DNA from: an uncultured Verrucomicrobiae bacterium
GTDB taxonomy: Bacteria > Verrucomicrobiota > Verrucomicrobiia > Chthoniobacterales > UBA10450
Assembly (NCBI GenBank): GCA_963821915.1
Contig: CAWGFS010000017.1
Coordinates: forward strand, 8,178-72,177
Direction of reading: 5' to 3'
Length of the DNA: 64,000 bases
The notes beneath the pieces are model-generated. The model was not told where the DNA came from, searched no databases, and worked only from the letters and a program-made list of their open reading frames with translations. Position 1 is the stretch's first letter; each line of letters opens with the position of its first letter. Made by a program: the position numbers and the translations under genes. This document shows positions 1 through 64,000 of this stretch, one piece after another.

Positions 1-2
1 AT

Positions 3-44237: not shown

Positions 44238-44303
44238 TCGTTAGGCGGGAGGGTTCGGTGGCCGCAGGTCGGCCCGGACGTGAAAGAAGGCTTGCCGTTA
44301 GGC
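44238..44303 (+). repeat. Pair of TCGTTAGGC / CGTTAGGC words in a convergent-gene spacer
   Basis: TCGTTAGGC is at 44238-44246 and CGTTAGGC at 44296-44303, in the same orientation. Confidence 0.7.
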
Positions 44304-44313
44304 TGGCCAACCG

Positions 44314-44703
44314 CTACTTCGCGTAGCCGGTCGAGGCCTGGCCGGCGGCATGCAATCTGTTGAGCGAACTGTGCACTTCGTAGCGCACAACGGTCCCGCC
44401 GGGGCTGAGAACAACGGTAAGCTGCTGCGCTTCGACGTTAAGGCCGCCGAGGCAGGGCCCGATGAGCGGGATGTAGGATTTGGCCGGAGCCGGCACGGAT
44501 CGAAACCAATCAATCGCGGTATAATGTGCCAGATCAACGAACCGCGTCGTCGGGATGCCGAAGAGATTCACCAAGTCCGCCTCAGTCGTCTGCCCGGGCC
44601 GGATCTGGTTGACGTTCTCCTGCGTGATCGTGCTCGGGTACGAGGCCAGAATCGTTAGGCAAGAGGAGAGCAGGAGGGCGGCGACAAGGGATTTGGTTTT
44701 CAT
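44314..44703 (-). CDS. Lipoprotein with SmpA/OmlA (BamE-like) domain
   Basis: Lipobox LLSSC and IRPGQTTEADLVNLFGIPT. Confidence 0.6.
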   Translation of the reverse strand: MKTKSLVAALLLSSCLTILASYPSTITQENVNQIRPGQTTEADLVNLFGIPTTRFVDLAHYTAIDWFRSVPAPAKSYIPLIGPCLGGLNVEAQQLTVVLSPGGTVVRYEVHSSLNRLHAAGQASTGYAK

Positions 44704-45066
44704 TGGGCTAGTCTCTACATTCTGCACAAATTGCGCCGGGATGCAGCAAAATCGTTCGCTAGCAGCGAAATTGTTCGCGGTTGCGATTGTGCTGGTGGTG
44801 GCTGGCGTTTGTCCGATCGTGACCTACCAACCCAAGCCCCGCAGAGAAGAGGAACTTGCTCCGACTGGTCCGCGCCCGTGTGCGAACGCTGCGCCGGAAG
44901 GGAGCGGGCGAACGAGCGCGTGCCGGTGATCAACGTGCAAAAGACGGGACAACCATCGAGGTCACGGAATGGGATCGAGCGAAGCAATCGACGCCGCGCA
45001 TCGCAATCCGGATGGGCCCTTTCCCGATTCGCGCTTTTGCCCGCCTAACGACCGAGTAAACGCGGG

Positions 45067-45873
45067 TCAGTTTTGCACCGCTTTGCGGTATTCCTCGAGC
45101 GCCTGTGGCATCCAACTTTGCAACTGCTCGATGCGATGGCCATGCGAGGGATGACTGGAGAGAAACTCCGGCGGCTGGGCCCCGCCGCCTTGTTCCATCC
45201 TTTGCCAGAACCGTATGCTCTCGCGCGGATCGTACCCAGCCCGGGCCATGTAGATCAAGCCAATGTGGTCGGCCTCTGATTCATGTTCGCGACCGAAGGG
45301 CATGAGGACGCCGAACTGCGCTCCCGCACCCAGGGCACCCATCACGGCGCGCTGATTGTTGTAGTCCATATCGGAAAGGGAAACCGCGATCCCGGTTAGC
45401 GCGGTTTGGGTGAGGTTTTGTTGCAGGACGCGTTGTGCGCCATGGCGGGAGGTGGCATGCGCCATCTCGTGCCCAAGCACGGTCGCGAGAGCCGCTTCGT
45501 TTTCCGCGACCGGCAAAATGCCAGTATAAACGACGATTTTCCCACCCGGCAGGCAGAAGGCGTTCACCTGGTTGTCGCGAATCAGCGATTCCTGCCAGTC
45601 GAACCCGCTCCCAGCCGGCCCGGTTGCCTTGGCGAGCCGGCTGGCTACCCGCCGCACCATCTCGAACTCCGGCCCCGAGTTGATCGTCTGCGATTGGTCG
45701 AGCACCTCGCGGTAGCCCTGCAAGCCGAGCGCGGACTCCTGTTCGACCGATAAGCCGACATGACTCTTGCGCCCGGTCTCCGGGTTAACAAACTTCTCCG
45801 AGCTAAAGTATTGGTAGGCGAAAAAAATCGCTGCGAGAAGGATCGGAATCCATTTGATGTGAGTCCGTCTCAT
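45067..45873 (-). CDS. M48 family zinc metallopeptidase
   Basis: HEMAHATSRH (HExxH) with a downstream E..AD, and an N-terminal TM segment. Confidence 0.85.
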   Translation of the reverse strand: MRRTHIKWIPILLAAIFFAYQYFSSEKFVNPETGRKSHVGLSVEQESALGLQGYREVLDQSQTINSGPEFEMVRRVASRLAKATGPAGSGFDWQESLIRDNQVNAFCLPGGKIVVYTGILPVAENEAALATVLGHEMAHATSRHGAQRVLQQNLTQTALTGIAVSLSDMDYNNQRAVMGALGAGAQFGVLMPFGREHESEADHIGLIYMARAGYDPRESIRFWQRMEQGGGAQPPEFLSSHPSHGHRIEQLQSWMPQALEEYRKAVQN

Positions 45874-45950
45874 GTTCTGTAGCCGCAGCTCTTAACCTGG
45901 CCAGGTTTAGATTGCTTTCGCCTGATGCAACACTTCGCCGGGGCATGCCC

Positions 45951-46325
45951 TTATTCAGGGCTGACTAACGGCAGAAATTCCTCCCGCACCACCTTACCGT
46001 CTTTGACCTTGTAGATTCCGACCTCAGACCCTTGGAAACGCTGGCCGGAATTCTTATCCGTCACATCGATATCGAAACGTACGACAAAAGTATCGCGGGC
46101 GACAAACGGCCCCGTGGCCTTTGCGCTGTGCACCTCGTGATTATCCACCCACCACTTGGTTTTGGCAGAAACCGCATCGAACCCTTTCGCCTCCGCCGGC
46201 ATGTCGCCCATAGGCCGCGGTTCCACGCTGACAACATCCTTGTCGTAAAGCGTCTTTATCGCCTCCTCGAAGGCACCCTTCCTGCAGAGCTCCACCAATT
46301 TTTTTGCCACCTCTTCTGTCGCCAT
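45951..46325 (-). CDS. SnoaL-like / NTF2-fold protein
   Basis: 124 aa, with the family-typical alpha+beta cone pattern (LYDKDVVSVEP...WWVDNHEVH). Confidence 0.65.
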   Translation of the reverse strand: MATEEVAKKLVELCRKGAFEEAIKTLYDKDVVSVEPRPMGDMPAEAKGFDAVSAKTKWWVDNHEVHSAKATGPFVARDTFVVRFDIDVTDKNSGQRFQGSEVGIYKVKDGKVVREEFLPLVSPE

Positions 46326-46433
46326 ATTATCCTCCTGATTTTATCTTTTTGTTGAAAAGTCCGCTGCAAATTTGTCGAACCCGCATGTCACTTTCGGATT
46401 CATGACGCTGCACCTGCCCTGAGCGGCTCTACA

Positions 46434-47675
46434 TCAGAACGCCCATATGCCCTGTGCAAACCGGCCCGTGTAGAGCGCAAGATATAAAAGAGACCAGATT
46501 GACAGCATGGCAAACGAAAAACGACGTCCGGTGCAGGCCCTGGCGAAAAGCAGAAAGACGGGAAAGAGTGTGAGAGTGTAGCGCGGCACGCTGAGGACAT
46601 AGGCTGTGCTAGTGATGAGCAGCCAATTCAGGGTTATCCAGACCGAGTAGGATGGCCGCAACCGCACCCAGGACCAAACGGTGCAGACCGAGACCAGCAC
46701 CACGCCGATGAGTTCGTTCAACCCTTCGTTCACGTTCATTCCGAGAGCCCGCAGATAGACGTCGCGGATGCCCACCCAGGGCGGAGCGAACTTCTTGTAC
46801 CAGTGTTCGTGCATGATCTTCGTAAACGCGAAAAAATCACCCGTCACTTCATGATTTAGCCAGAGATAGCCGAGAAACCCAAAGGGCACCAAACAGAGCC
46901 AAAGCCAGCGAAGATTGATACGACGCGTCTGCCAGTATTGGAGACCGACTTCCGTGGCAAGCGCCGGAAGCAGGATCAAGCCATTCACCCGGGTAAGACA
47001 GGCACCGGCACCGAGCAATCCGGCGAACGCCCAGCGCTCCTTCCGCGCGGCAAGAAAGCAACCGAGAGTCAAAGCAAGGAAGAGGCTTTCGGTGTAACCG
47101 ATATGCAGAAAGAAGCTCGTCGGAAAGATAAAGAGAAACCAGACAGCATTGCGCGATACCTCTTCGGACTCGTCGCAACGCGCCAAGCGCCGGAACAACA
47201 GAGCCGCGGCCACGGAGGCAAAACCCGAGACGATCAAAGCCGCCGCCATGTAGTCACGAACGAAGAAAGCCGTCAGTCTAATCAGCCAGGGATAGAGCGG
47301 GAAAAAGACGAGCGATACGCGACTGTCGCCCGCAGCGACGTAGCCGTGTTCTGCGAGTCCGAGGTAATGCAACGTGTCCCAGTTGTTCCATATTTCGAGC
47401 CAGCTCCGGTGGGCTGGGTCAAATGAGGCGACGGCCTGCACACCAAAGGTCAGGAGTAGCGCCTTGATGCCAAGAACCAGCCCAATCGTTTCCCAATCCC
47501 AGCCCCGGACGCGCGCAAGCCAATCATTGCGCCCGCCTTGGGACCCACCACGCTCTGCCTGCGTAGAAGAAGAATTCACCCGGCAGCGTAGTAGCGAAGG
47601 AAATCGGAATCGTCGAGCGCCAACTTTACAACAGGCCGTAATCCGGGAACTCCCCCACCCCTCGCCGAGATTCAC
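46434..47675 (-). CDS. Polytopic membrane glycosyltransferase (PIG-V/mannosyltransferase-like)
   Basis: WDTLHYLGLAEHGY...LVFFPLYPWLIRL motif and about 9 TM helices. The start is uncertain. Confidence 0.7.
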   Translation of the reverse strand: MNLGEGWGSSRITACCKVGARRFRFPSLLRCRVNSSSTQAERGGSQGGRNDWLARVRGWDWETIGLVLGIKALLLTFGVQAVASFDPAHRSWLEIWNNWDTLHYLGLAEHGYVAAGDSRVSLVFFPLYPWLIRLTAFFVRDYMAAALIVSGFASVAAALLFRRLARCDESEEVSRNAVWFLFIFPTSFFLHIGYTESLFLALTLGCFLAARKERWAFAGLLGAGACLTRVNGLILLPALATEVGLQYWQTRRINLRWLWLCLVPFGFLGYLWLNHEVTGDFFAFTKIMHEHWYKKFAPPWVGIRDVYLRALGMNVNEGLNELIGVVLVSVCTVWSWVRLRPSYSVWITLNWLLITSTAYVLSVPRYTLTLFPVFLLFARACTGRRFSFAMLSIWSLLYLALYTGRFAQGIWAF

Positions 47676-47840
47676 CGGGTCTCGCCTTGGTCGCCTTATG
47701 CGCAGCCTTCGAGATGGCCGCGGAAACTGATCCCACGAAACCGAGAATACAGTTCGTCCTAGAGCGTCCGTCGTCAGAAGGTCAATAGCCTACCAGCCGA
47801 TTGACCTTGCCTCTTGAGAATGCCGGCGCCCCGGAGGATG

Positions 47841-48521
47841 TTAAATATCGATTGTCTCTCCTATTTGCGGTAACAACAGTTCTTTCCCGGCGGCGTTCGC
47901 GGCTTTTATCGCGGCGTCGCGGTCGAGCTTGATCGGCGGGAAGGTATCGTAGTGCACACCGACAATTTTCGTGACCCTGACAAAGTCCGCGGCCCGGAGC
48001 GCGTCGTCGATTCCCATGGTGAAGAAGTCTCCGATCGGGAGGACTGCAAAACGCAGTTCTGTCTGTTCGCTTATGAGTTTCATGTCTAAGGTGAGCGCGG
48101 TATCGCCTGAGTAATAGAAATTTCCATCGCTCGTCTCGATAACGAAGCCCGCGGGATTCCCGCCGTAGCTTCCGTCGGGCATCGAGCTGCTGTGGATGGC
48201 GGCGGTCAGCTTGACTCGCCCGAAAGGTGTTCGGGCGGCGCCACCGTGGTTCATCGATTGCACATTCTCGAGGCCCTTCTTTTCGAACCAGGAGCCGACT
48301 TCGAAAGGCGCGATGACCGTCGCGCCGGTCCGCTGCGCGATTGCCACCACATCCGCCACGTGATCGCCGTGGCCATGCGAAATGAGAATAAAATCGGCCG
48401 CGATTTTTTTCGTGTCGATCTTCTCAGCGAGTGGATTTGGGGTGATGAATGGATCGAAGAGAAGCGTCTTTCCGCCGGCCTCGACCGCAAAACAGGCGTG
48501 CCCATAGTAAGTAAACTTCAT
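47841..48521 (-). CDS. UPF0173 metallo-beta-lactamase-fold hydrolase
   Basis: MKFTYYGHACF and ILISHGHGDH motifs. Confidence 0.85.
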   Translation of the reverse strand: MKFTYYGHACFAVEAGGKTLLFDPFITPNPLAEKIDTKKIAADFILISHGHGDHVADVVAIAQRTGATVIAPFEVGSWFEKKGLENVQSMNHGGAARTPFGRVKLTAAIHSSSMPDGSYGGNPAGFVIETSDGNFYYSGDTALTLDMKLISEQTELRFAVLPIGDFFTMGIDDALRAADFVRVTKIVGVHYDTFPPIKLDRDAAIKAANAAGKELLLPQIGETIDI

Positions 48522-48672
48522 AGGACCATTTAATTATCGATTGCCGAGGACGCAATAGGTTCGCCTCGGAACAAGACCGCTGTCGGAGAGTCGTGCACCG
48601 CACCGGTGGCGTCGGACTGCTCCCAGTCGTTCTCAATTCATCCGCTACACCGCACTAGCCTGCCAGGTCCGC

Positions 48673-49110: not shown

Positions 49111-49149
49111 AGGATGTGGGCAGGTTGAGTGAGTTCGATTAAGCGGTGG

Positions 49150-51730
49150 TTAAATCTTACGCGCGGGACGGACGGTGGCGAGGACATAAGGTTGCCGGAA
49201 ATATTTTGCCGCCACTCGCCGGATGTCCTCGGGGGTGATCTTTTCGATCTCGGCTTCCAATTTTTTGAAATGATCGAAGCCAAGGCCATAAAGTTCATCG
49301 AGCGCCGCCATGTAACCAAAGGAATCGTTGCTTTGGTTGGCGATCCGTTGCTGGCCGATCAGCTTTTTCTTCGCCCGCGTCAGCTCATCGTTCGTTAGGC
49401 CAGAGGCGGCCAGTTTTCCGATTTCATCAAGCAACGCGGCCTTGACCAGGTCGAGCTTCCCGGGATCCGTCCCGAGATAAAAAGCGAAGAGCCCCGGCAC
49501 CAGTCCCTGCATCTGGCTGGCGCCGACATAATAGGCCAGCCCCATCTCCTCTCGGATGCGAACAAAAAAGCGCGAGCCCAGATCGCTGCTCGCCTCGTCG
49601 ATCAATTCCAGCGCGTAACGATCCGGACTAAACATATCCGCGCCGCGATAACCGACCATCAGGACGCCCTGGGCCTTTTCCTTCAATTCCTCGACCGCAA
49701 TCGTCTTCGCGAGCAGTGGGGAGGGCGAAGCGTGCGTCAGAGCGAGCTCGCCCTGATTCATCCCGGCGAGCATCTGCTCCAAGAGTTCTCGCACTTCTGC
49801 GGCCCTGACGTTGCCGAAGACGGAGATGACGCCGTTCTTCGCCACCACGTAACGATCGCGAAAGGCAAGCAGATCCTCTTGCCGTAAGCTGGCTGACGGC
49901 TTCCGGCGTTCCTTTGGCTCGCAGGGCGTAGGGATGCTCGCCGAAGAGCGCGCCGCGCAGGATGTTGCGCGCGACGGTGGTGAGCTGTTCATCGTCGTCG
50001 CGAATGCCCGCCAGCTGCACTTCTCTTTCCCGGGCAACGGCTTTTTGCGGCATCGTCGCATTGAGCAAAATGTCGCTGAGCAATTCCGCCCCGAGTCGCA
50101 AATCGGGCTTCGTGACGTCGAGCGAAATGCTGAAGCTGTTATTGCCCGCGTCGCTTCCCAGGTTGCCGCCGACCGCTTCGATCGTGTCCGCAATCTGCTC
50201 GGCGGTGCGTGTCGTTGTCCCCTTCACCATCACCTTGGCCATCAAACGCGTGAGGCCATTCGTCGCTCGCGTTTCCGCGAGCAATCCACCGCGAAAAACC
50301 GCGACCATCGAGACGAGCGGAAGGCGCGGATCCTCTCGCACGAGCAGGCGCAGTCCGTTGGAGAGCTCGAACTTCTCCACCTCGCCGGCCGAGACGGCGA
50401 CGGCTTCGGTTGTCTTGGCGGCGAGCGTGCCGCGCGGGTTTAGCGAAACGACGGTCAGATTATCCTCCACCAGATATCGCCGGGCGACGCGCTGGATGTC
50501 CTCGAGCGACACCTTTTGCATCGCCTCGAGATAGTCGCGCGTGAAGTTGAGGTTGCGCGTGACGAACCAGTTCGAGCCTAGATCGGATGCCTGGCCGCGC
50601 ATGGTGGTGAGCGAGCCTAACGAATGGCCGAGCGAAATCTTTTTCGCTTTGGCCAGCTCTTCGGCCGTCACGCCGGTCTGCTGCAGCTCGGCGATGATCT
50701 CGAGGATCAACCGCTCCGCCTCCACCCGATGCTCCGGCTCGAGCGTCGCGTCGATCCCGAGCAGCCCGGGATCGCCCGGAGTGTAGGAAAAGGCCGAGAC
50801 CCCAAAAACCAGACCCGCTTCCTCGCGCACCCGCCGATAGAGTCGCGAGCTGCGGCCATCGCCGAGAATGGTCGAAAGCAGATCGAGCGCCGGCACGTCG
50901 GGATGGGTGATCTCCGGGATGTGCCAGGCCAGCGCGAGACGCGTCAGTTCCGTGGAAAACTCTTCATTCACCTCCCGCCGCCCCTGCTGCGGCGGCTCCT
51001 GCGGGATGTAGCCCGGCGGGAGCGATCGCGCTGGATAGCCGGCAAAGTATTTTTCGAGCTGCGCGTAAACCTCGCCCGCATCGACATCGCCGACGATGAC
51101 GAACGTGAGATTGTTAGGCACGTAGCGCGCCCGGTAGTACTCCAGCACGTCTTGCTGTGTGAGTTGGTCGAAGATTTGAATCTCGCCGATCACCGGGATG
51201 CGATAGGGATGCCGCTGATAGGCGGTTTTGAACATGAGTTGCCCCATCATCCGATCGGGATCGTCGTAGAGCATGGCGAACTCTCGCCGGATGACTTCCT
51301 GTTCCTTGCTGTACTCCTCTGGCGGGAGGGTGGAGTTCATCATCGCGTCGGCCAGAATATCGAGCGCGCTCGCGACCCCTTCCCGCGGCACGTCGATCCA
51401 AAAGACGGTCCGATCGAAGGAAGTATAGGCGTTGATGTAGCCGCCCTGGTCCTGGACGCTTTGCGCGATCGCATTGGTCGAGCGCGTCCTGGTGCCCTTG
51501 AAGAGCATGTGCTCGAGAATATGCGAGAGGCCGGCGCCGAGATGGCGGCCTTCGTTGATGCTGCCCGTGCCGCACCAGGCCTGCACGCTTGCGACCGGCG
51601 CGCTCCGATCGGTCTGCACGATTATCGTTAGGCCGTCAGGCAGAGTCCATTGCTGCGCGGTGACCGGCGGAAACGTGATCGCCGTCGAGTTGCCCGGCGG
51701 CGCGGTCTTGAGTCGAGCGGTAGTCAACAT
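49150..51730 (-). CDS. Two-module M16 (pitrilysin/insulinase) family peptidase of about 860 aa, one +1 disruption near 49882
   Basis: The HILEHMLFKGT zinc motif is in the N-terminal module. The second M16-like module continues without a stop. ORF 49628-51730 joins ORF 49150-50193 at AVSQLT/QEDLLAFRDRYV. Confidence 0.85.
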
Positions 51731-52432: not shown

Positions 52433-53744
52433 TCAATTCGTCTGCATCTCGAGCGAATCGAGATAGACCGAGATCGGATCGCGCCGGCGCGGCAGCGCTT
52501 CATCGGCGGTTTCGAGGATCTCCGAGAAGGCTCCGCTCGTCGTTTTGCTATGCGTCGCCTCGTACCAATTGAGGTAGTCATCGACCGCGGGGCGCTGCCG
52601 CTCGATCACGGCGCGATAGTTCGCGACCCGCTCGAGCCTCTCCGGCACCCAGTGTGTCTTGCCTCGCGCAAGCATCTCGGCGAGCTCGTAGTCTTCCTGC
52701 ACGATGGCCCGGTAGGACGGATGTGCCCGCACTCCGAGGAGCAGCAATTGCTGGCCGACCTGCCGGAGCACCGCGCGGGACGCAGGCAGTTTGGGAAACG
52801 TTTTGTAGTCGCCTAACGAGTAATCACGCACCCGCCCGTCAGGCGCGGGAATGGAAAAGCGCAGAACGCGATCGAGCTGGGCGACGGTGTCCGCCGCGCT
52901 CAATGTCTCATAGCGGTCCATGGCAGAGAGTTGAGCCACACTCAGGGCCCACCACTTGCGCCGGCGCACGCCCGAGCGTCTCCGGAAAATGCGCCTGCAG
53001 ATCGGCCACGGCGTCGTTAGGCGCATCAGGAAGGTCGGTGATAAACTGCGCGACCTTGAACCGGCCACCGGGAACGTCGAGCAACAATTGAACGAGCGCC
53101 CGGGCATAGGCCTCGTGGAGCTGCCGCGAGGGCGCGTCGAGCTGCGCCCGCCGTTGCCTGACGATATCTTCGAGCGGGCTGATTCTTTTCGAAGCGACAA
53201 TCGATCGCAGAAGTTCGGCATCGTTATCCGAAGCGCGTCCCGGCTGCAATGCCAGCATGCCCTCCACCAGCCAATCCGGCGGCGTGACGTAGGGCATGCC
53301 AGCCGCGAGGTTGCCCCGATCGCGATACATCAGTTCGACCAGGATGGCTCGCAACAACTCGCGCTGCACGCCGACGCCCTTCATTTCCCGGGTCAGGAGC
53401 AAATTGAGTTGCAGCTTCAAGCCGTATCCCAGCTGGCTGACGTCGAGTTGCACCAAGGGCGCATCGGGAACGTTTGCCCGGGGATAGTCGAGGTTGACGA
53501 TGAGAGGCGTTTGCCAACTATCGCGCAGACCGAGGAGCCGCAGGAGGTCAGACTTGGTGCGCTCCGCCAGGTCGCAGATCATCCCGCGCACTCGGACCTC
53601 GGCGCCATAGACGAGAAACTGCCGTGAAGTGCTGGTGCTGCGCTCCTTGCCCGCGGACCAGGCCACGCCCGCGGTCAGACAGAGAAGAAAGGCAAACGGG
53701 TGGAAGATTTTTCGCGGGGAGAACATCGACGACCGAGGACGCAC
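52433..53744 (-). CDS. Secreted hypothetical protein of about 437 aa, one +1 disruption near 52965
   Basis: ORF 52908-53744 (signal peptide) continues in ORF 52433-53221 at HFPETLGR/...WWALSVAQLSAMDRYETL. Confidence 0.55.
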
Positions 53745-53835: not shown

Positions 53836-54393
53836 ATGAAACTGACGCGAATCTTAATGATGGCTGTTGCGGCGGCGGCATTGTCGGTGTTCGCCATCCC
53901 GGCTGACGCGCAAATGCGGGGACACAACGGCGGCAACTGGCATGGCGGTGGCAATTGGCACGGCGGCAACTGGCATGGCGGAAACTGGCACGGGGGCAAT
54001 CGGGTGAACTTTTTCTTCGGCGGGTTTGGATATCCTTATTTTGGGTATCCGTACTGGGGCGCTCCTTATTATTACGGTGGCTATCCCTACGGTTACCGGT
54101 GGCTACCCTACGGTTACCCGGTGGGCGCATATTACAGCTACGATCCGCGCGGAATATATCAGGGAAGGGTTGTAAACCCGGGACAGCCAACAAATGAAGG
54201 CGGTGGAAAGGATTTTTCCATGGCCGCGCGCGTCCAGCGAGAGTTGGCGACCGCCGGTTACTACCGCGGCGCGATTGACGGGATCGTCGGGGATGGCACA
54301 CGCCGCGCGATCCGGAATTACGAGCGCGACAACGGTCTGCCGGTGGATGGCGAGATTGACAACCAGTTGCTGGCCACGATGGGCCACGGGTAA
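53836..54393 (+). CDS. Secreted protein with GNWHG pentapeptide repeats, a Tyr/Gly/Pro-rich segment and a C-terminal peptidoglycan-binding domain
   Basis: Signal peptide, four GNWHG repeats, GYPYFGYPYWGAPYYYGGYPYGY, then VQRELATAGYYRGAIDGIVGDGTRRAIRNYERDNGLPVDGEID. Confidence 0.7.
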   Translation: MKLTRILMMAVAAAALSVFAIPADAQMRGHNGGNWHGGGNWHGGNWHGGNWHGGNRVNFFFGGFGYPYFGYPYWGAPYYYGGYPYGYRWLPYGYPVGAYYSYDPRGIYQGRVVNPGQPTNEGGGKDFSMAARVQRELATAGYYRGAIDGIVGDGTRRAIRNYERDNGLPVDGEIDNQLLATMGHG

Positions 54394-54407: not shown

Positions 54408-54469
54408 TCGGTTAGGCCGACGCCTCGCCAGCAAGTGCCGGGCGCTGCCGCGAGGCGGGTTCGTTAGGC
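54408..54469 (+). repeat. Pair of TCGGTTAGGCC / TCGTTAGGC words in a convergent-gene spacer
   Basis: TCGGTTAGGCC is at 54408-54418 and TCGTTAGGC at 54461-54469, in the same orientation. Confidence 0.7.
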
Positions 54470-54480: not shown

Positions 54481-55224
54481 TCAGCGCGCGACGATCAGCG
54501 TCACGGACTGGGGGTGAAATTCGATGCCGGCCATTCGCGCAACCGATTTACGCTCCCGGGCCAGGCACTCCCAGGCTTTTCCCAAGAGGAGATCCGCATA
54601 TTTCATGAGCACGGGATGGATCGGCATCCGGCCGATGTAACCACCCATGTTCGCCGTCGTAATCTTGCCGTTATTGATCGTCACACGATAAGCGCTGCCG
54701 CAAAAAATCGAGAGTTGCAATATCCGGCGTTCGACGTGGACCCAGCATTGACCTTCCTGGAACTGGACGAAGACGCGCCGGAGCGGGAAGTAACCCTGGT
54801 GGGCCGGACTGTCCTTGCGCCGCACGGTGGCTGCGAGGTAGCTGTTCGCCTGCTCTTCGTTGTAAACAAGAGAGGCTGCGTGATGACTGGAGACCGCTGA
54901 CATCATATCCATGCCGATCAAGGGCGCGAAGCTGTAGTTTTTCGGCGCCGGCGGCAGATCGGGCGGTAGAAGCATCACGATCACCACCGCGAGACAAAGC
55001 GCGCCCAGAAACGTCTTGCCAAGCTTGGTCGCGATGCGTTTGCCGCGTCCGCGATTTGGCCGGAACATCTTTTTGAGATGCTGGCGTGTCCGCTCCTCGG
55101 CGACGGCTTCGTCGACCTTTTCCTTGATCAGTCCAGTGCGATCGAGACGCGCGCCGCAGTTGTGACAATAGATTCGCTCCGGCTCGTTTTCGTGCTGACA
55201 ATCCGGACAAATGAGCTTGGTCAT
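54481..55224 (-). CDS. Zinc-ribbon membrane protein of unknown function
   Basis: Starts MTKLICPDCQHENEPERIYCHNCGARL and has one TM helix. Its ATG overlaps the restored stop of the upstream FmdB-like gene (ATGA). Confidence 0.6.
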   Translation of the reverse strand: MTKLICPDCQHENEPERIYCHNCGARLDRTGLIKEKVDEAVAEERTRQHLKKMFRPNRGRGKRIATKLGKTFLGALCLAVVIVMLLPPDLPPAPKNYSFAPLIGMDMMSAVSSHHAASLVYNEEQANSYLAATVRRKDSPAHQGYFPLRRVFVQFQEGQCWVHVERRILQLSIFCGSAYRVTINNGKITTANMGGYIGRMPIHPVLMKYADLLLGKAWECLARERKSVARMAGIEFHPQSVTLIVAR

Positions 55225-55581
55225 GAACCGGAGTCCTTTTTCGCTTTGGTTTCCGGCGTTTTCGCGGGCGCCGTTGCGGGCCCGGGCTTCCCGTCCGCTT
55301 TGCCGCCCGCGTTTTCGCTGCTGCTTTTTTCGCCTCTGCGAAGGCGATTCTTTTTTGGCGCCTTCCTTATAGGAATCACTGCGGTAGTCCGTGATGTAGA
55401 AACCGGAGCCTTTGAAAATCAGCCCCGCTCCCGTCCCTAGAAGCCGCTTCACGTTCCCTTTGCCCCATCTCGCCTGCCGGCAGAGTGCCTTTGGACAAAC
55501 CTTGAAAGGTTCATCTCGCATCGATTGGTAAGCGTCGAAATTTTGCCCGCATTTCTGGCAGGCGTATTCGTAGGTCGGCAT
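55221..55581 (-). CDS. FmdB family zinc-ribbon regulatory protein, one +1 disruption in a poly-A run
   Basis: MPTYEYACQKCGQNFD...CPKALC is the CxxC_CxxC_SSSS signature. After the A-runs (about 55325-55356) the alternative frame gives EKSSSENAGGKADGKPGPATAPAKTPETKAKKDSGS, then a stop. Confidence 0.75.
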
Positions 55582-56419: not shown

Positions 56420-57439
56420 ATGATCATCATCACTCAACCGACTGTGACCGATGCGCAGATCGACCATATCGTCGCGCGGATCGAGGAGTTCGGTCTCCGC
56501 TCCCAAGTGATGCGCGGCGAAACGCGCGTCGTCATTGGTGTGATCGGCCCTGACGAATTGATCCGTGAGAAACCGCTTGCCGCGATTCCGGGAGTGGAGT
56601 CCGTCGTCCCGGTGATGAAACCCTACAAGCTGGTCGCACAGGAGAATGGCTCCTTGCCGCCGCCTGTCTCGATCGGCGACGTAAAAATCGGCAGCGGACA
56701 GCGTGTCGTGCTGATCTCCGGTCCCTGCTCGGTCGAGAGCAAGGAACAGACTGCTCTCGATCGCGAACGCGGTGAAAAAAGCCGGCGCGCGGGTCCTGCG
56801 CGGCGGAGCGTTCAAACCGCGCACCTCGCCCTACAGTTTCCAGGGTTTAGGCGAAGACGGGCTCCGTTATTCTGGCCGAAGCGCGGGCCGATACCGGGCT
56901 GCCGATCATTACTGAAATCATGGACACGCGCGATCTGGAACGGGTCGAAAAATACGCCGATTGCCTCCAGATCGGCTCGCGCAACATGCAGAACTTTGCC
57001 CTGCTTAAGGAAGTCGGCCGAAGTCGTCTGCCGGTCCTGCTCAAGCGCGGCTTCAGCGCGACGATCAACGACCTGCTCATGAGCGCGGAATACATCCTGA
57101 GCGAAGGCAACCCGCAACGTCCTCCTCTGCGAACGCGGCATCCGCACCTTCGAAACGATGACGCGCAACACCCTCGATCTCAATGCGGTCCCGATCTTGA
57201 AAGCGAAGACGCGCTTGCCGGTCGTGGTCGATCCGACCCACGGCATTGGCCTGCGCGATTACGTGCCGCAAATGTCGCTCGCCGCGGTCGCGGCCGGGGC
57301 GGACGCGTTGATGATCGAAGTGCACGACGATCCCGAGCGCGCCCGGAGCGATGGCGAACAGGCGCTGCGGCCGGAAGCTTTTGCCGATCTCGTTAGGCGG
57401 ATTCGAGCCGTCGCCGAAGCAGTCGGGCGCGAGGTATAG
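56420..57439 (+). CDS. aroF: 3-deoxy-7-phosphoheptulonate (DAHP) synthase, type I-beta with N-terminal regulatory domain; three +1 disruptions (about 56760, 56867, 57116)
   Basis: [40 protein letters not shown] and VVDPTHG can be followed through frames f2-f0-f1-f2. Confidence 0.85.
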
Positions 57440-57528
57440 GCGAGCAGCGGATTGCCGCGTCTGGAATTGCCGCAGGAGTTCGGAAGCGGCGAAATTGAAC
57501 TTCGCTCGCCTTTCGGCGAGAGCATGGC

Positions 57529-60500
57529 GTGGAAAAATCGTCGGGCGCCGACCTTCTAAAAATCGTCGCCGACGCGGAGCCGATCGCGCGCCAATTGCAG
57601 GCGCTGCGCGAAGGCGTGCGTCCGGTGACCTTTTCGCATGTCATCGAATCGGCGCGCGCCTTTCTGGTCGCGGTTCTCGCCCGTGAAATTCCGCAAACGC
57701 TTTGGGTCATCTGTCCGAGTGTGCGCACCCAGGAACTGCTCCATGAAAGCCTGACGAACTGGTTGCCGGAGGCGCTCTTCCTGCCCGAGGCCGAGTTTTT
57801 CGGCGGTCGAAAACATTCTGCCCGACCAGGAGATCGCCGCCGAACGGCTCGCCCTGCTCAGCCGGGTTGAGGAAAGCCGGCAGCGCCACGTCGTCGTCGC
57901 GACGCGCGCCAGCCTCGATCAGCCGGCGCCGAAGCGCGGCACGCTCCGGGAGGCCGCGCTGAAGCTGCGCCGTGGCAGCGTCGAAACCGCTCGAGCGTGT
58001 CATCAATTCGTTAGGCGAAGCCGGTTACGAGCGCGTCGCACAGGTGACGACGCGCGGGCAATTCGCGGTCCGCGGCGGAATTCTCGATGTCTATTCGTGG
58101 CAGGCGCCTGCGCCGATTCGGGCCGAGTTCTTCGGCGACGAGATCGAGTCGCTCCGCGAATTCGATCTCGATACGCAGACTTCGCTCCGCAATCTGAATG
58201 AGGTCGAGCTCTTGCTCGGCGCGGCCGACGATCAGAGCGGGAAGGTGCGCGATTACATCGGGAAGGAGCATCTACGAGTGGCGATCGAGGACGCGGACGA
58301 GAACGCGGACGTTTTCATTAGCGAGGGCTGGCTGGCCGGCACTTCAGAGCAGCATTCAGGAGAGCAAATTGAAGTGGGAAGGTACCCTGCGCAATCGAAG
58401 AGGCCGGGCGTTTCATCACGTGATGAAACCATGGATGACATCGAAGATTTCAGCGGCGCCTTTGTCGATTGCGAGATCGGCGAATTCGACACCGGCGAGT
58501 TCATCATCGCCGAGGCGAAACGACAGCAGTTCTTCGCCCGCCTGACAACCTGGCGCGAAGACGGAGCCCGAATCGCGATTTACTTCCAGACCGAAGGCGA
58601 GATCGAACGCTTTCGCGAGATCATGGCGGAGGCCAGGATTTCGTTAGGCGAAATCGATTTACTCGAAGGGCACGCTCGCCCGCGGCTTCTGTTTTCCCGC
58701 GGCCAACCTCGTCGTGCTTGCCGCGGCGGAACTTTTCGGCCGCGCCCCGACGCACGGGCGGCGCCGTCTGCAGCGCGCCGCGAAGTTCGGCACGCACCGC
58801 GCGCAGATCGATTTCAGCGAACTGAACGAAGGCGAACTCGTCGTTCATCTCGAGCACGGCATCGGCCGTTTTCTCGGACTGCAACGCATGGGCGGCCCGG
58901 AGACGGGCGAAGTGCTGGCAATCGAATTTGCCGAAGAGGCGAAACTCTACGTCCCGCTCGAGCAGGCCTTCATGGTCTCGCGCTACGTCGGCGTCGGGAA
59001 AAAATCACCGCCGCTCAGTTCGCTGGCCGACGCGAAATGGACGCGAGCGAAAAAGAACGCCGTCGCCTCGATTTTCGATTACGCGGGCAAAATGCTCGCG
59101 CTGCAGGCCGAGCGCGAGACCCAGCGCGGCCACGCCTTCGGCCCCGACACCAAATGGCAGCTCGAGTTCGAGCATTCGTTTCCGTTCCGCGAGACGCCCG
59201 ATCAGCTGGAAGGCGATCGCCGAAACGAAGCGCGACATGGAGGAACCGCGCTCGATGGATCGCCTGATCTGCGGCGACGTCGGCTTCGGCAAAACCGAGG
59301 TCGCGATTCGCGCCGCCTTCAAGGCGGTGATGGAAGGCAAACAGGTCGCCGTCCTCACCCCGACGACCGTGCTCGCGCAGCAGCATTTCGAAACGTTTCG
59401 CCAGCGAATGCTCGATTATCCGGTGCGAATCGAAATGCTGAGCCGGTTCCGCTCGCCGGCGGAACAGCGCAAGGTGCTCGAAGCAATTGCGCGAGGGCGG
59501 CGTCGATGTCGTCGTCGGCACGCATCGGCTGATTTCCGGCGACGTGGTTTTCAAGGATCTCGGTCTGGTCGTGATCGACGAGGAGCAGCGCTTCGGCGTG
59601 CTGCACAAGGAAAAATTCAAGGAACTCTTCAAGCTCGTCGACGTGCTCACGCTCTCGGCGACGCCGATTCCGCGCACGCTTTACCTGTCGTTAGTCGGAG
59701 TGAAAGACATGTCGACGATCGAGACCCCGCCGCTCAATCGGCTCCCGGTCGAGACGGTGATTTGCGGTTACGACGAGCGCATCATTCGCGATGCGATCAA
59801 TCGCGAGCTCGAGCGCCAGGGTCAGGTTTACTTCCTGCACAATCGCGTCATGTCGATCCAGAAAGTGCGCGACCGCATCGCGGAGCTTTGTCCGGGCGCG
59901 CGGGTCGAATTCGGCCACGGCCAGATGGACGCGGACGAACTGGAAGACGTCATGCAGCGCTTCGTCGCGGGGAAAATCGATGTCCTCATTTGCACCACGA
60001 TCATCGAGAGCGGACTCGATATTCCGAACGCGAACACGATCATCATCGATCGGGCCGATCGTTTCGGGTTGGCCGATCTTTATCAACTGCGGGGCCGCGT
60101 CGGCCGCGCCGAACACAAGGCCTATGCCTACCTCCTTCTCCCGCGCGAGATGATGACGGTCGGCGCGGCGCGCAAGCGGATCAACGCCATCCAGCAATAC
60201 AGTTCGTTAGGCGCCGGCTTCCGCATCGCGATGCGCGATCTGGAGATTCGCGGCGCCGGCAGCATTCTCGGCACTGCGCAAAGCGGTCACATCGTCGCGG
60301 TCGGGTTCGATCTTTACTGCCAGCTGTTGAAGCAGGCGGTCGCGCAACTGAAAGGCGAAAAGCTCCGGCCACGGCTCGAGGTGGAGGTGCGGCTCGATTT
60401 CGTCGCCACGAACGAAGGCGAATATCTTGCCGCCGGCCCCGAAAAGCTCGTGCCCGCGTTCATTCCCACAGCCTACATCAGCGATGCCGCGCTCCGGATT

Positions 60501-60797
60501 CAGGCCTACCGGAACCTGGCCGAAATCACGACCCCCGAACAGCTCCAGCGGCTCCGGCGCGACTGGCGCGATCGCTTCGGAAAGTGGCCGGAGCCGGTTG
60601 ACAATTTGTTCTTACTCAGCGAAATCAAGCTTTCTGCCGCCCGGGCTCGCGTCAGCCGGGTCGAGGTGCGCGAGGGCAAATTGATGCTCAGCCGTCGGGG
60701 CGACTTTATCCTTGTCGGTGGCAAATTTCCTCGCTTAACTTCCGGTAAAATCGATCTCAATCTCCCTGAGGTGTGGCAATGGTTAAAGCAACTCTAA
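57529..60797 (+). CDS. mfd: Transcription-repair coupling factor; five +1 disruptions (about 57802, 57985, 58670, 59208, 59497)
   Basis: [47 protein letters not shown] (Walker A), DEEQRFGV, helicase C motifs and the TRG region [18 protein letters not shown], followed through frames f1-f2-f0-f1-f2-f0. Confidence 0.9.
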
Positions 60798-61776
60798 ACT
60801 TCATCTGGCGTTATCCGACCGTCGCGCTTCTCGCATTCTCCTGCTTCGGAGTGGCGGCGACCGCTTCGCCCACGCGCGGCGCGGAATCGGTCAATGGCAT
60901 CGCAGCGATCGTGAATGACAAAGTCATCACCTATTCCGAGGTGCGAGAAGTCGTCGAACCTCGCGAGCGCCTGCTCCGCTCGCAGTATTCCGGCGAGGAG
61001 TTGGTGAACAAAATCACCGAGCTGCGGAAAGCGGCGCTCCAGGACCTGATCGATCGCCAGCTCATCGTCCAGGCTTTCGACAAGGAGAAGCTCGCGATTC
61101 CGCCGCACTTCATCGACGAGCGGGTGGACGAGGTGATCAAAAACAACTTCGGTGGCGACCGTCACGCCTTCATCAAGACGATGGAGGCGCAAAAATATAC
61201 GATGTCGAAATTCCGCGATCTGGAGCGGCAAAAGATCATCGTGCAGGCGATGCGGGCCAAGAACGTGACATCCAACCTCATCATCCCGCCGGCCAAGGTG
61301 GAGGAATATTACCGCAAGCACAGGGACCAGTTCGCGAACAAGGCGCAGGTCAAACTCCGGATGATCATGATCCCGGGCCACGCCGATTCGGGCGGCGGCG
61401 CGGCGCAAGCTCGATGGCGGAGGAGATTCGCGCCAAGCTCATCACCGGCGCCGACTTCGACAAGATGGCGCAGATGTATTCCGAAGACAGCACTCGCGAT
61501 CTGGGTGGCGACTGGGGCTGGATCGATGACAAGACGCTGTCAGCGCCGCTCTCCGAGGTCGCCTTCAGTCTCCAGCCCGGCGCGATCAGTAAAGTCATCA
61601 ATTTGGGCGGCAATTATTACATCTTGAAAGTGGAAGCGCGCCAGGGCGGCGAAGTGAAACCACTCAAGGATGTGCGGGCCGATATCGAGGGGCGGCTGCG
61701 GCAGGATCAGGCGCAAGAGCTGCAGGAACACTGGCTCGCCAGTCTGCGCTCGAAGGCTTACATCAAGACCTTCTAG
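60773..61776 (+). CDS. SurA-like periplasmic chaperone / PpiC-type peptidyl-prolyl isomerase, two +1 disruptions near 61395-61412
   Basis: Signal peptide and a SurA_N-like region (IAAIVNDKVITYSEV), then the rotamase domain (GADFDKMAQMYSEDSTRDLGGDWGWI) in ORF 61414. Confidence 0.8.
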
Positions 61777-61804
61777 CTTTCTGGCAACGCTTCGCTGATG
61801 ACTA

Positions 61805-62695
61805 TTGCGCAACATGCGCAAACGCATCGGCATCACGTTGGGCGATCCGGCCGGCATCGGCCCGGAAATCATCCGGGCGGCGCTGGCGTCGGGGAAATTG
61901 CCCGACGCAGATTATCGCCTGCTGGGCGAATCCGAAGGGCACTCGTTAGGCCAACCCACTCCCGAGAGTGCGCGCGCGGCCCAGGCCGCGCTCGAGGAAT
62001 CCGCCCGACTGGCGATCGCGCATGAGATCGATGCGGTCGTGACCGGACCGATTCACAAGGCTAGCATGTATGAAATCGGATTCGAGTTTCCCGGCCAAAC
62101 CGAATTCTTCGCCGCACGCTGCGGCGTGGAGAACTTCGCCATGCTCCTCACCGGAGCGGGTCTCACTGTCGCTCTCGTAACCACACACATCCCCCTCGCG
62201 CAGCGTGACCGAAAACCTGCGGACGGCCGAGATTGTGCGAGTCGGGTCGCTTCTCGCAGAATTTTCTCGTCCGGCGTGGCGGTTCCCGGCGCATCGCCGT
62301 CGCGGGATTGAATCCACACGCGGGCGAGTCCGGAGCGCTCGGCCGCGAAGAAATCGAGATCATCGCGCCGGCCGTCGCCGAACTGCAACGGATCCATGCG
62401 ACCGCGCAGATTCGCGGTCCGTTCTCACCCGACACCATTTTTCACCGTTCGGTCGAGGGAGAATTCGACGGCGGTCCTTTGCATGTATCACGATCAGGGA
62501 TTGATCCCGCTGAAACTGCACGCATTCCATGAAGGCGTGAACGTCACTCTTGGACTCCCGTTCCCGCGCACCAGCCCGGATCATGGCACCGCTTTTGCGA
62601 TCGCCGGCCAGGGCATTGCCCGGCCCGACAGCATGATCGCCGCCATCCGGCTCGCAGTGGAACTGGCCGAATCGAACGCTTGCTCCGGAGAATGA
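61805..62695 (+). CDS. pdxA: 4-hydroxythreonine-4-phosphate dehydrogenase; three +1 disruptions (about 62201, 62262, 62470)
   Basis: [33 protein letters not shown] and [13 protein letters not shown] can be followed through f2-f0-f1-f2. Confidence 0.85.
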
Positions 62696-63315
62696 GCCCA
62701 CGCATCTCGCCTCTTCATCTCACGCTGCTGTTGGCGACTGGCCTGGTCTTCGCCTGGTCGGCCTGGCATCCCTACGATCGCCTGACGTGGTGGCTCGAAG
62801 TCGCTCCCGGAATCCTCGGCGCGGCAATTCTCATCGCCACCTACTCCAGTTTTCGCTTCACCACGCTCTGCTACACGTTGATCGCTCTACACATCATGCT
62901 GCTCTGCGTCGGTGGGCATTACACCTACGCTCGCGTGCCGTTCTTCAACTGGATCGAACCGTTTTTCGGATGGCACCGAAATCATTTCGATCGGCTCGGG
63001 CATTTCATGCAGGGCTTTGTCCCGGCGTTGATCGCGCGCGAGCTCTTCATCCGACTGCGCGTGGTCACGTCCGGCGGCTGGCGCTTTGCCATCGTGCTTC
63101 TCATCTGCATGGGAATCAGCGCACTCTACGAGCTCCTGGAATGGGCCACTGCGCTCGGCGCGGGCGCGGCCTCCACCGCTTTCCTCGGCACCCAAGGCGA
63201 CGTCTGGGACACGCAGAAAGACATGTTCATGGCCCTGATCGGCGCGATCTGCGCCTTGATCCTGTTGAGCCGCTGGCAGAACCGGCAGATGCGACATCTG
63301 CCGAGCCAATGGTGA
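62692..63315 (+). CDS. DUF2238 (YjdF-like) inner membrane protein
   Basis: Polytopic membrane ORF. Its ATG overlaps the pdxA stop (ATGA). The ORF track start is 62680. Confidence 0.75.
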
Positions 63316-63431
63316 AGGAGAAATTTCAACCGCGGATTACGCAGATGACACGGATTGGAAGGCGAAAGCAGACCAAAGGCCTACTTTTCCTACCGGTGAA
63401 ACCCGCTGTAATCCGCGGTCTAAATTCCTCG

Positions 63432-64000
63432 ATGCAGCCGCAAAAGTATCTCACCGTCTTCAATCTCGGGATCCAGAACACCTTTGTCTATCGCTGGAAC
63501 TATTTGTTGCGCGCGATCTTCGGGATCATTCCGCTGGTCGGCACGATCTTCCTTTGGCGGGCGATTTTCCGCGAGAGCGGCGGCGGTATGCGCGGCTACG
63601 ACTACGGCTCGATGATTTACTACTACCTGCTCACGATTTTGGTGAGCAACCTCGTCACCCCGACCGAGGACGAATGGCAAATCGCCGCCGACATTCGCGA
63701 GGGTCAGATCAATTCCTTCCTGACCAAGCCGATGAGTTATCTCGGCTACCGCTTCAGCATTTTCCTGAGCGGCCGGCTGGTTTACACCGCGGTCACGATC
63801 CTCCCGATCGCCGCCATCTTCTTCTATTTCCGCCGTTTCATCATTCTGCCTAACGACGCCGTGACCTGGCTCGCGGCGATCGTTTCGCTCCTCATGTCGG
63901 CTTTGATCCAGTTTTTTCTGACCTACTCGCTTTCGATGATGGCTTTCTGGATTCTGGAGATCTCAACCATCGTTTTCATCGTTTACAGCTTCGAATATTT
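63432..64000 (+). CDS. ABC-2 family transporter permease (uncharacterised ABC-type system), 5' partial: runs off the window end
   Basis: The frame is open from the ATG at 63432 to the window end. The translation MQPQKYLTVFNLGIQNTFVYRWNYLLRAIFGIIPLVGTIFLWRAIF... has multiple TM helices. It is absent from the ORF track because no stop codon lies within the window. Confidence 0.7.
   Translation, partial: MQPQKYLTVFNLGIQNTFVYRWNYLLRAIFGIIPLVGTIFLWRAIFRESGGGMRGYDYGSMIYYYLLTILVSNLVTPTEDEWQIAADIREGQINSFLTKPMSYLGYRFSIFLSGRLVYTAVTILPIAAIFFYFRRFIILPNDAVTWLAAIVSLLMSALIQFFLTYSLSMMAFWILEISTIVFIVYSFEY

Follow-up and report, generated by a model that had tools for sequence, protein, structure and literature searches.

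The window analysed here, a stretch of 64,000 nucleotides from an uncultured Verrucomicrobiae bacterium of the Chthoniobacterales, is made up of a left part of flexible gene content and a conserved syntenic block on its right. The left part encodes DUF885, amidase, methyltransferase, NHL, Kelch and beta-propeller repeat proteins, as well as a PLD-like protein, a Ser/Thr kinase and a multicopper oxidase (all from Pfam), and a conserved pair of aspartate aminotransferase and 2-hydroxyacid dehydrogenase genes is found at 35.4-37.9 kb. Its codon usage is native-looking, and no tRNA genes or long inverted repeats were found in positions 1 to 44237. Synteny of the window with the relative L081 begins at 43768, and Pfam confirmed the gene names Mfd, PdxA, DAHP synthase, M16 and M48 peptidase and SurA-like. 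All 15 exact copies of the 9-mer TCGTTAGGC lie between 44238 and 63856, 11 on the plus and 4 on the minus strand, each at the coordinate and on the strand originally predicted. They are given below with their occurrence at the corresponding positions of relatives; the high-density clade is the single monophyletic group formed by the genomes of high word density in a tree of Mfd.

1..44237, no strand: word-free stretch with flexible gene content (Pfam and word scan)
44238..44246, + strand: exact word in the convergent spacer between a response-regulator gene (43812-44222, +) and a small gene (44314-44727, -); the leftmost copy, at the left margin of the syntenic, conserved block, missing in L081
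44652..44660, + strand: exact word, antisense within the small minus-strand gene 44314-44727; exact counterpart in L081 (17075), and in L255 (16039) by relative position
45043..45051, - strand: exact word, intergenic, 24 nt start-to-start from the end of the M48 peptidase gene (45067-45873, -); offset to this gene identical in L081 (17898) and L255 (16860)
49392..49400, + strand: exact word on the antisense strand of the M16 peptidase gene, which lies on the - strand; L039, L048 and L051 have an exact copy at the orthologous site
50615..50623, - strand: exact word on the sense strand of the M16 peptidase gene, reading TCG-TTA-GGC; exact in 14 of 15 relatives of the high-density clade and 0 of 9 others
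51625..51633, + strand: exact word, running antisense to the M16 peptidase gene; present unchanged in 5 of 15 relatives of the high-density clade
52811..52819, - strand: exact word, sense in the minus-strand gene 52433-53744, encoding Ser-Leu-Gly (DYSLGDYK); exact in 11 of 15 relatives
53014..53022, + strand: exact word, antisense in the minus-strand gene 52433-53744; exact in 10 of 15 relatives
54461..54469, + strand: exact word in the convergent spacer between gene 53836-54393 (+) and a zinc-ribbon gene (54481-55581, -); exact in 5 of 12 relatives
57390..57398, + strand: exact word in the DAHP synthase gene, close to its 3' end; the frame xTC-GTT-AGG-C encodes Leu-Val-Arg and uses the rare codon AGG; 9 of 26 relatives have an exact copy
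58008..58016, + strand: exact word in mfd, Ser-Leu-Gly; exact in 24 of 27 relatives of the high-density clade and 2 of 44 others, the site in other lineages being mostly GCGCTCGTC (Ala-Leu-Val)
58641..58649, + strand: exact word in mfd, Ser-Leu-Gly; exact in 18 of 27 relatives of the high-density clade and 0 of 45 others
60204..60212, + strand: exact word in mfd, within the conserved motif YSSLGAG, where the rare TTA codon spells a pre-existing Ser-Leu-Gly; exact in 24 of 28 relatives of the high-density clade and, among other lineages, in 34 of 52, TCGCTCGGC being the chief alternative there
61943..61951, + strand: exact word in pdxA, Ser-Leu-Gly; exact in 20 of 25 relatives of the high-density clade and 19 of 47 others
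63848..63856, - strand: exact word, antisense in a conserved plus-strand gene that runs from 63432 to past 63998; exact in 14 of 21 relatives of the high-density clade and 0 of 41 others

Against these 15 copies, dinucleotide shuffles of the window contain 0.35 on average and never more than 3, and an order-3 Markov model gives an expectation of 0.36, in line with the value below 1 that had been estimated; TCGTTAGGC is the most enriched 9-mer of the window. The 5' extension of TTAGGC had been called non-random, and the nested counts match this (TTAGGC 30, GTTAGGC 23, CGTTAGGC 19, TCGTTAGGC 15). Near variants exist as listed originally, save that the positions 21228 and 59686 are off by one to two bases. 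The word is non-palindromic, its reverse complement GCCTAACGA being another word, and the 25-base flanks of the 15 copies bear no relation to one another; thus, TCGTTAGGC is a bare word rather than a piece of a longer dispersed repeat. Many single-base indels are present in the assembly of the window. The possibility that TCGGTTAGGCC at 54408 is a damaged copy of the word was ruled out, because L001 likewise reads TCGGTTAGGC there.

The enrichment survives the codon-aware null that had been proposed as a check. Shuffling of synonymous codons within genes leaves 0.2-0.3 copies per 20 kb, as against 6-15 observed, an excess of 30-70 fold. Across independent loci, each of the four frames free of stops contains the word (38, 20, 35 and 36 copies); it is found on either strand of genes, sense or antisense, and between genes; the majority of copies lie within genes. 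There, TCGTTAGGC is placed at the expense of rare codons and altered amino acids. The codons TTA, AGG and CTA each account for 2-3.5% of their own codon family, 68% of Ser-Leu-Gly tripeptides are spelled TCGTTAGGC compared with ~0.6% expected from codon frequencies, and the peptides encoded by the word exceed their frequency in word-poor relatives 2-13 fold. In the window the word reads Ser-Leu-Gly three times in mfd and once in pdxA, and is shifted in frame in the DAHP synthase gene, as first described. The proposed check of whether orthologous positions keep the word despite its synonymous cost also came out positive: between species that are 76-81% identical in DNA it is retained exactly in 68% of comparisons, versus 14.8% for control 9-mers. 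Orthologous alignments at the word show substitutions and no insertions.

TCGTTAGGC is the top-enriched 9-mer in 28 related species, at 0.4-1.1 copies per kb. When the high-density relatives are pooled with the right-hand 20 kb of the window, 360 copies stand against 5.1 expected; in the pooled set most one-mismatch variants are near chance level, and the flanks show weak preferences only, with almost no information. In the conserved genes of one Chthoniobacterales clade there is about one word per 1.4 kb, and ~0.7 words per kb corresponds arithmetically to ~0.6% of the DNA, all counts being taken from loci of 21 kb or less. Among neighbouring lineages the density is patchy, intermediate or near zero, and some of them have positions in common with the clade. 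The 9-mer is the same in all lineages, with a hint, from small numbers, of another preferred -1 base in those outside. The hosts are known from MAGs. Since TCGTTAGGC dominates in Illumina and long-read MAGs alike, from many studies and dozens of independent assemblies, an assembly artefact is excluded; with the unrelated flanks, this leaves neither of the pitfalls anticipated in the original prediction, a longer repeat and assembly redundancy, as an account of the word.

Scarcity of the word in the accessory part had likewise been noted, and the left 44.2 kb of the window contain no exact copy, together with 12 one-mismatch copies versus ~9 by chance (scaled from the whole-window expectation). 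Gene content around the aminotransferase differs among relatives. The proposed comparison of core with accessory DNA gave 0.65-0.83 words per kb in conserved segments versus 0.36 per kb in poorly shared ones, and one MAG has 0.70 words per kb in the mfd region versus 0.24 per kb in the flexible aminotransferase region.

TCGTTAGGC thus combines enrichment, independence of strand and frame, a cost in codons and amino acids, conservation of position, depletion from flexible DNA and concentration in one clade. It bears the genomic signature of DUS/USS-type words, seen elsewhere chiefly in the uptake sequences of Neisseria and Haemophilus, in a phylum without a described case, and this signature suggests self-specific DNA uptake in the Chthoniobacterales clade. 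Our preferred reading, held with slightly less than even confidence, is that TCGTTAGGC may be a lineage-specific word of the DUS/USS type, by which self is recognised at the level of DNA. A little more tentatively, a major uncultured clade of soil Verrucomicrobia might practise sequence-specific uptake via this word, independently of the two proteobacterial cases and with a putative receptor. Cells of the clade would preferentially bind and import DNA fragments bearing TCGTTAGGC, probably through a surface or pilus-associated receptor, and the imported fragments would replace the homologous chromosomal segment by recombination. Alleles gaining the word by point mutation would be transmitted more often, and the word would therefore build up by molecular drive at sites where the protein tolerates it. 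Related species would keep it fixed at shared positions, and it would be lacking in DNA recently arrived from lineages without it. Uptake bias, receptor and competence are the parts of this mechanism that we infer. A literature search found nothing that connects competence or a DNA uptake sequence with Verrucomicrobia or the lineages studied, nor, as had been supposed, any described word of this kind.

Sequence-specific uptake words have been described in the literature for only two proteobacterial families. The DUS of Neisseriaceae (GCCGTCTGAA and its dialects) resembles TCGTTAGGC in being short and non-palindromic, with roughly one copy in each kb and copies on both strands, in accumulating in the core genome, in its conserved positions and in its distribution by clade, which for TCGTTAGGC has patchy exceptions (PMC3630211). 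It is present in thousands of copies per genome. DUS and USS account for “up to 1%” of the chromosomes that carry them (PMC3630211), and the enrichment of TCGTTAGGC is of comparable size. The two words are unrelated in sequence and phylum, and where DUS has dialects, TCGTTAGGC has none that are clearly distinct, beyond the hint concerning position -1. Roughly half of the DUS/USS known are located in terminators, often as inverted pairs (bioRxiv 10.1101/2025.10.24.684340). Such terminator pairs are very frequent for neisserial DUS, whereas TCGTTAGGC is mostly intragenic and its pairs are few, with only one tight inverted pair in 28 syntenic loci and further pairs in other loci. The USS of Pasteurellaceae (AAGTGCGGT core) shares with TCGTTAGGC a 9-base core and weak flanks, in a different sequence and phylum. 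DUS is bound by the minor pilin ComP and uptake of USS has been shown experimentally, whereas the data on TCGTTAGGC are genomic. Most copies of USS lie inside genes, with a visible effect on the encoded peptides, and they are missing from recently acquired DNA. USS also have AT-rich flanking segments, which are not seen around TCGTTAGGC. Their use of reading frames is biased according to the literature.

Every proposed genomic test that was run supports an uptake-like word, but the intergenic pairs 44238/44296 and 54408/54461, which had been adduced for it, are weak evidence because each contains just one exact copy. The uptake reading is weakened by the small number of inverted terminator pairs and the location of most copies inside genes, and by one word-dense Mu-like transposable prophage, which has 17 words in 18 kb, the density of the chromosome, in both orientations. 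It is also weakened by the copies at 60204 and 61943, whose exact persistence in otherwise word-poor lineages is not predicted by simple loss of an uptake system.

This persistence suggests that a few copies may serve alone, as they could if TCGTTAGGC were a genome-wide word like HIP1 with a function unrelated to uptake. It would then be an abundant binding or modification site of a lineage-specific DNA-binding protein, acting in nucleoid organisation, repair targeting or methylation, and would be kept by selection or biased gene conversion. Cyanobacterial HIP1 (GCGATCGC) is an abundant exact word of unresolved function that occurs in all coding frames and is conserved at orthologous positions, features that the density, all-frame occurrence and positional conservation of TCGTTAGGC recall, and the rarity of inverted terminator pairs is also compatible with such a role. 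However, HIP1 is a palindrome linked to methyltransferase sites, whereas the asymmetric TCGTTAGGC would be unfit for a symmetric methylase or repair site. Depletion of the word from flexible DNA within the same genome fits a history-dependent drive better than a requirement for evenly spread sites, and we know of no protein that requires thousands of exact 9-mers. We consider a HIP1-like word unlikely, if worth keeping in mind.

Somewhat less probable again is a Chi-like or other nuclease-modulating self-marker, in which a RecBCD/AddAB-like helicase-nuclease or a defence nuclease would stop degrading DNA that bears the word, so that the chromosome and adapted phages would be selected to carry it. 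The over-representation and lineage specificity of the word, and its 11:4 strand split in the window, would agree with this, and the Mu-like prophage makes better sense if carrying the word benefits phages, which would be selected to resemble self; yet four additional viral scans, together with a search for phages related to this prophage, brought up no other word-dense phage. Chi (GCTGGTGG, E. coli) and KOPS (GGGNAGGG) are, like TCGTTAGGC, over-represented, species-specific short words read on the DNA. Known Chi words are 5-8 nt long, enriched a few fold and largely compatible with codon usage, and both Chi and KOPS are polar relative to replication and modestly enriched. TCGTTAGGC differs in its excess over codon-aware nulls, its rare codons and changed protein sequence, and its lack of polarity. 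Across 22 independent loci with 185 words no local strand polarity was detected (sum d^2 215 versus 185 expected, P = 0.29), the estimate being p ~0.56, with p = 0.75 and p = 0.9 both rejected, and word orientation showed no relation to GC skew. The Chi/KOPS alternative of the original prediction is not upheld by these data, which reject KOPS-like and E. coli Chi-like behaviour, and the 11:4 bias, while true of the window, is no general property.

A chromosome-orienting polar word (KOPS, SRS or AIMS), read by FtsK/SpoIIIE and pointing to dif, would likewise be a short over-represented oligomer and could show an 11:4 split, but it is effectively refuted, and hence highly improbable, by the rejected polarity of 0.9, the mixture of both orientations in every 10-21 kb locus and the split of 187:142 in 28 syntenic relatives. 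A trivial origin in a peptide motif, codon usage, the footprint of a dispersed repeat or mobile element, or assembly redundancy or error, to which four window copies encoding Ser-Leu-Gly and the indels of the window assembly might point, has a negligible probability, being refuted by the four frames, both strands and intergenic copies, the failure of codon-aware nulls, the unrelated flanks, the substitutions in alignments and the dozens of independent assemblies; a REP/MITE-type repeat in particular is ruled out, the flanks being near-informationless and most copies lying within genes.

If the uptake reading is true, TCGTTAGGC would be a third, unrelated case of an uptake word, in another phylum, and kin-biased gene exchange would have evolved repeatedly. 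Natural transformation would then operate in dominant uncultured soil bacteria, with core genes exchanged preferentially among kin. Should TCGTTAGGC prove not to serve uptake, some different mechanism would have to account for a 9-mer that takes precedence over codon choice and remodels proteins roughly once every 1.4 kb. As a marker, TCGTTAGGC separates long-resident core DNA from recent acquisitions and flags contigs of the Chthoniobacterales clade in metagenomes, and it tells attempts at genetics which 9 bases donor DNA needs.

Two minor observations concern individual relatives. One gene of L082 gives a weak match to prepilin N_methyl, the sole trace of competence machinery in the loci covered. 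The two inverted pairs of L257 are located in a divergent promoter region and not 3' of genes.

The 9-mer TCGTTAGGC (the word) occurs in 15 exact copies in the window, 11 on the plus and 4 on the minus strand, spanning 44238-63856. Dinucleotide shuffles of the window contain a mean of 0.35 copies (maximum 3), an order-3 Markov model predicts 0.36, and the word is the top enriched 9-mer there. The analysis confirms the over-representation put forward in the original prediction and shows it to be far stronger than could be known at that stage; the nested counts given there agree with a recount (TTAGGC 30, GTTAGGC 23, CGTTAGGC 19). The exact copies are placed as follows:

Within genes: 12 copies (7 sense, 5 antisense)
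Intergenic: 3 copies

Flanks were aligned and inspected visually, and their information content was assessed. The 15 window copies have unrelated 25-base flanks, and among 392 copies from relatives the flanks are only weakly informative (preferences for T at -1, G at +1 and A/G at +2 and +3). The word is thus bare and not a fragment of a longer dispersed repeat, as nothing extends past approximately 1-3 weak flank positions. The left 44.2 kb holds no exact copy and 12 one-mismatch copies, against about 9 by chance (scaled from the whole-window expectation). Two near-variants in this part, GCGTTAGGC at 17915 and 19737, both sit in a duplicated 1.82-kb module and thus count as one event. TCGGTTAGGCC at 54408 was considered as a damaged copy of the word and rejected.

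Using the intact C-terminal part of Mfd as query, 80 loci of at most 21 kb were collected, one genome per species. All are from Chthoniobacterales/Spartobacteria (Verrucomicrobiota) MAGs, mostly from soil, with 83-95% protein identity. DNA identity to the window is 76-81% for relatives L001-L028, which are also syntenic with it across 49.9-64 kb, and 71-74% for the remaining loci. The window groups with L001-L028 as a single clade of the Mfd tree, and members of this clade have the word at 0.4-1.1 per kb. A ranking of 9-mers, limited to the L001-L028 loci of 14 kb or more, places the word first or second in every one, with 9-20 copies per 21 kb against approximately 0.2 expected. Pooling L001-L028, L082 (a relative's aspartate aminotransferase locus) and the right-hand 20 kb of the window gives 360 copies where 5.1 are expected; in this pool one-mismatch variants mostly occur at close to chance frequency, with a few moderately enriched. 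The assemblies stem from many studies and from short as well as long reads, which excludes an assembly artefact. Outside the clade the density is patchy (per kb, L039 0.82, L051 0.56, L065 0.50, L054 0.38), and many lineages have 0-0.1. Per-locus k-mer ranking revealed no comparable alternative "dialect" word in the word-poor relatives. At position -1, T is commoner in L001-L028 and C (AC, GC or TC before the word) in L051, L065, L039, L047 and L054, which may be a dialect-like difference, albeit in small numbers.

Maintaining the word is costly for coding sequence. TTA accounts for 3.5% and CTA for 2.2% of Leu codons in these genomes, and AGG for 3.3% of Arg codons; all three are rare, and any stop-free reading of the word therefore contains a rare codon. 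Among the 224 Ser-Leu-Gly tripeptides in confidently coding ORFs of the high-density clade, 152 (68%) are encoded by the word, whereas about 0.6% would follow from codon usage. The peptide contexts of its four stop-free frames are 2-13 times commoner than in a comparable quantity of coding sequence from word-poor relatives. When synonymous codons are shuffled inside each gene, 0.2-0.3 copies per locus remain, compared with 6-15 observed inside genes. Together, these results indicate that the word has been imposed on proteins and is not a product of them; frame usage and the shuffles rule out a peptide motif or codon artefact.

The copies are also conserved in position. Window copies are kept exactly at orthologous positions in 68% of comparisons within the high-density clade (e.g. 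58008 in 24/27, 60204 in 24/28 and 50615 in 14/15). Control 9-mers from the same aligned region are retained in 14.8% on average (median 6.7%), and 68% is attained by only 2.2% of them. The corresponding positions in word-poor lineages are mostly occupied by unrelated sequence of the same length, such as GCGCTCGTC (Ala-Leu-Val) at the 58008 site; the word thus originates by substitution, sometimes with a change of amino acid. Two copies are exceptions, being present in genomes outside the clade (L029-L080):

60204-60212: mfd, motif YSSLGAG; exact word in 34/52 outside genomes
61943-61951: pdxA; exact word in 19/47 outside genomes

Both persist in nearly word-free lineages despite the rare TTA codon and approximately 72% DNA identity. 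This persistence suggests that some individual copies may be useful in themselves.

Within the high-density clade, the word is present at 0.65-0.83 per kb in segments common to many relatives and at 0.36 in those common to at most two. A codon-aware null, conservation at orthologous positions and core versus accessory density had been named as checks in the original prediction, and assembly redundancy as a possible flaw; the enrichment withstood all of these. The word-rich zone of the window starts where conserved synteny starts, at 43.77 kb. The left 44 kb encodes ordinary accessory functions with native-looking codon usage and contains no tRNA genes, long inverted repeats or phage genes, which argues against a mobile-element origin of this word-free part. 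Its one clearly conserved pair comprises an aspartate aminotransferase and a 2-hydroxyacid dehydrogenase, with homologues up to 94% identical and different flanking genes in every relative fetched. L081 and L255, two relatives' loci around this aminotransferase, share with the window the junction to a response-regulator/M48 block, including two orthologous words, and are word-poor to its left. As these independent assemblies also join the aminotransferase to the block, a chimeric window contig is unlikely. L255 is from the same MAG as L005; this genome has 0.70 copies per kb near mfd and 0.24 in the flexible aminotransferase region. Where the aminotransferase lies among housekeeping genes (L082, L257), there are 0.75-0.94 words per kb.

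Thus far, the pattern is that of an exact, asymmetric 9-mer, enriched 30-70-fold in loci of up to 21 kb and making up approximately 0.6% of the DNA, on both strands and in all frames, with codon and protein cost, conserved positions, a lower density in flexible DNA and a distribution centred on one clade. Published descriptions of two kinds of uptake word, the DNA uptake sequences of Neisseriaceae and the uptake signal sequences of Pasteurellaceae, give the same pattern (PMC3630211; bioRxiv 10.1101/2025.10.24.684340). A similar uptake word, as originally predicted, is tentatively the best explanation, with a chance that we put a little short of even. The best-supported mechanism, drawn entirely from this pattern, is biased uptake with homologous replacement: DNA bearing the word would be taken up preferentially and would then replace the homologous chromosomal segment, and the outcome would be molecular drive. 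In the papers searched we found nothing on this word, nor on uptake sequences or competence in Verrucomicrobia. The sequence and the phylum, and presumably the receptor too, have no relation to the known cases, and part of the organisation is different. Pairing in terminators is very frequent among known uptake words (bioRxiv 10.1101/2025.10.24.684340), whereas tight inverted pairs are uncommon here, and two of them, in L257, lie in a divergent promoter region. The uptake reading is weakened by this scarcity, by a word-dense Mu-like prophage, and by the persistence of 60204 and 61943 in word-poor lineages.

That the word is instead HIP1-like, with some other function, seems unlikely. A Chi-like word or protective marker is less probable still. 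Five pattern scans of viral contigs gave one word-dense contig, L205/L258 (IMGVR_UViG_3300037261_000237), a Mu-like transposable prophage with genes for a large terminase, Mu-type portal, TniB/MuB-like ATPase and HTH regulator. It carries 17 copies in 18 kb (0.94 per kb, both strands), and a protective self-marker explains a phage at full chromosomal density at least as well as uptake drive does. A distant relative of the prophage (L259, 38% terminase identity) has none. The other contigs proved to be tandem repeats or chance pairs; in six unrelated viral contigs the word recurs at a strict 17-nt or 72-nt period (L208, L220; L210, L218, L219, L223), and these copies thus belong to tandem DNA or protein repeats and not to the dispersed signal.

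Chi of the E. coli type is expected to show polarity. Independent regions were obtained as metagenome contigs by a scan for inverted word pairs, in which approximately 20 contigs (GC 0.54-0.62) were word-dense beyond the seed pair. Across these contigs, L082 and the window, copies occur in each of the four stop-free frames (38, 20, 35 and 36), and neither sense nor antisense predominates (58:71). Over 22 independent loci with 185 words, the difference between plus and minus counts scatters as the binomial predicts (215 vs 185, P = 0.29); local polarities of 0.75 and 0.9 are rejected and 0.65 is marginal. The 11:4 strand bias reported initially is not a general trait, as the 28 syntenic loci give 187:142. 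Orientation showed no association with GC skew, which is too weak to help in loci of 5-21 kb. These results reject Chi-like polarity of the E. coli type. A KOPS-like word, also proposed originally, is effectively excluded, as is a trivial origin of the signal.

Most inverted-pair matches in the metagenomes are from unrelated organisms, with both arms within a longer palindrome. Several contigs of GC 0.67-0.72 (L098, L102, L103, L109, L110, L115, L126, L128, L135 and others) have in common a conserved hairpin of approximately 50 nt, ...GATGATGGG TCGTTAGGC ACACCAGAGTGT GCCTAACGA CCCATCATC..., of which the 9-mer is a segment; they contain no other copies, and a search with L109 gave no Rfam match for the hairpin. 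L257 has two consecutive perfect hairpins of the word at 9841-9909 (TTCGTTAGGC-6 nt-GCCTAACGAA, then GTCGTTAGGC-6 nt-GCCTAACGAAC), located in a spacer between divergent genes, upstream of the one for the aspartate aminotransferase; L082 has two copies at the same site.

The duplicated module (16380-19890) consists of two units of approximately 1.82 kb with 80-89% identity, each with one gene (16506-17675; 18325-19476) of internal repeats of about 147-153 nt in which the motif GTGCCCGCGCCC recurs. Pfam gave no match for gene 16506-17675 or for ORF 18868-19476, the sole ORF scanned in the second module. Direct repeats of 264 nt (3692-3955/6619-6882, 95% identity) lie on either side of an amidase gene, and others of 190 nt (8421-8610/10148-10337, 92% identity) adjoin a methyltransferase gene; both pairs may reflect past gene flux in this flexible part of the window.

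Five single-base insertions in the window's mfd (57802, 57977, 58668, 59208, 59481), scored against all eight aligned high-clade relatives, divide the gene among three reading frames. None of the five falls within a word, and a link between the word and the many frameshifts was rejected. The genes for an M16 peptidase, DAHP synthase, a SurA-like protein and pdxA look similarly broken, with further positions at 52956, 57113 and 61408. Several mfd insertions lengthen a short run of the same base, and the broken genes suggest that long-read indel errors were left uncorrected, with a pseudogene-rich genome as the less likely alternative.
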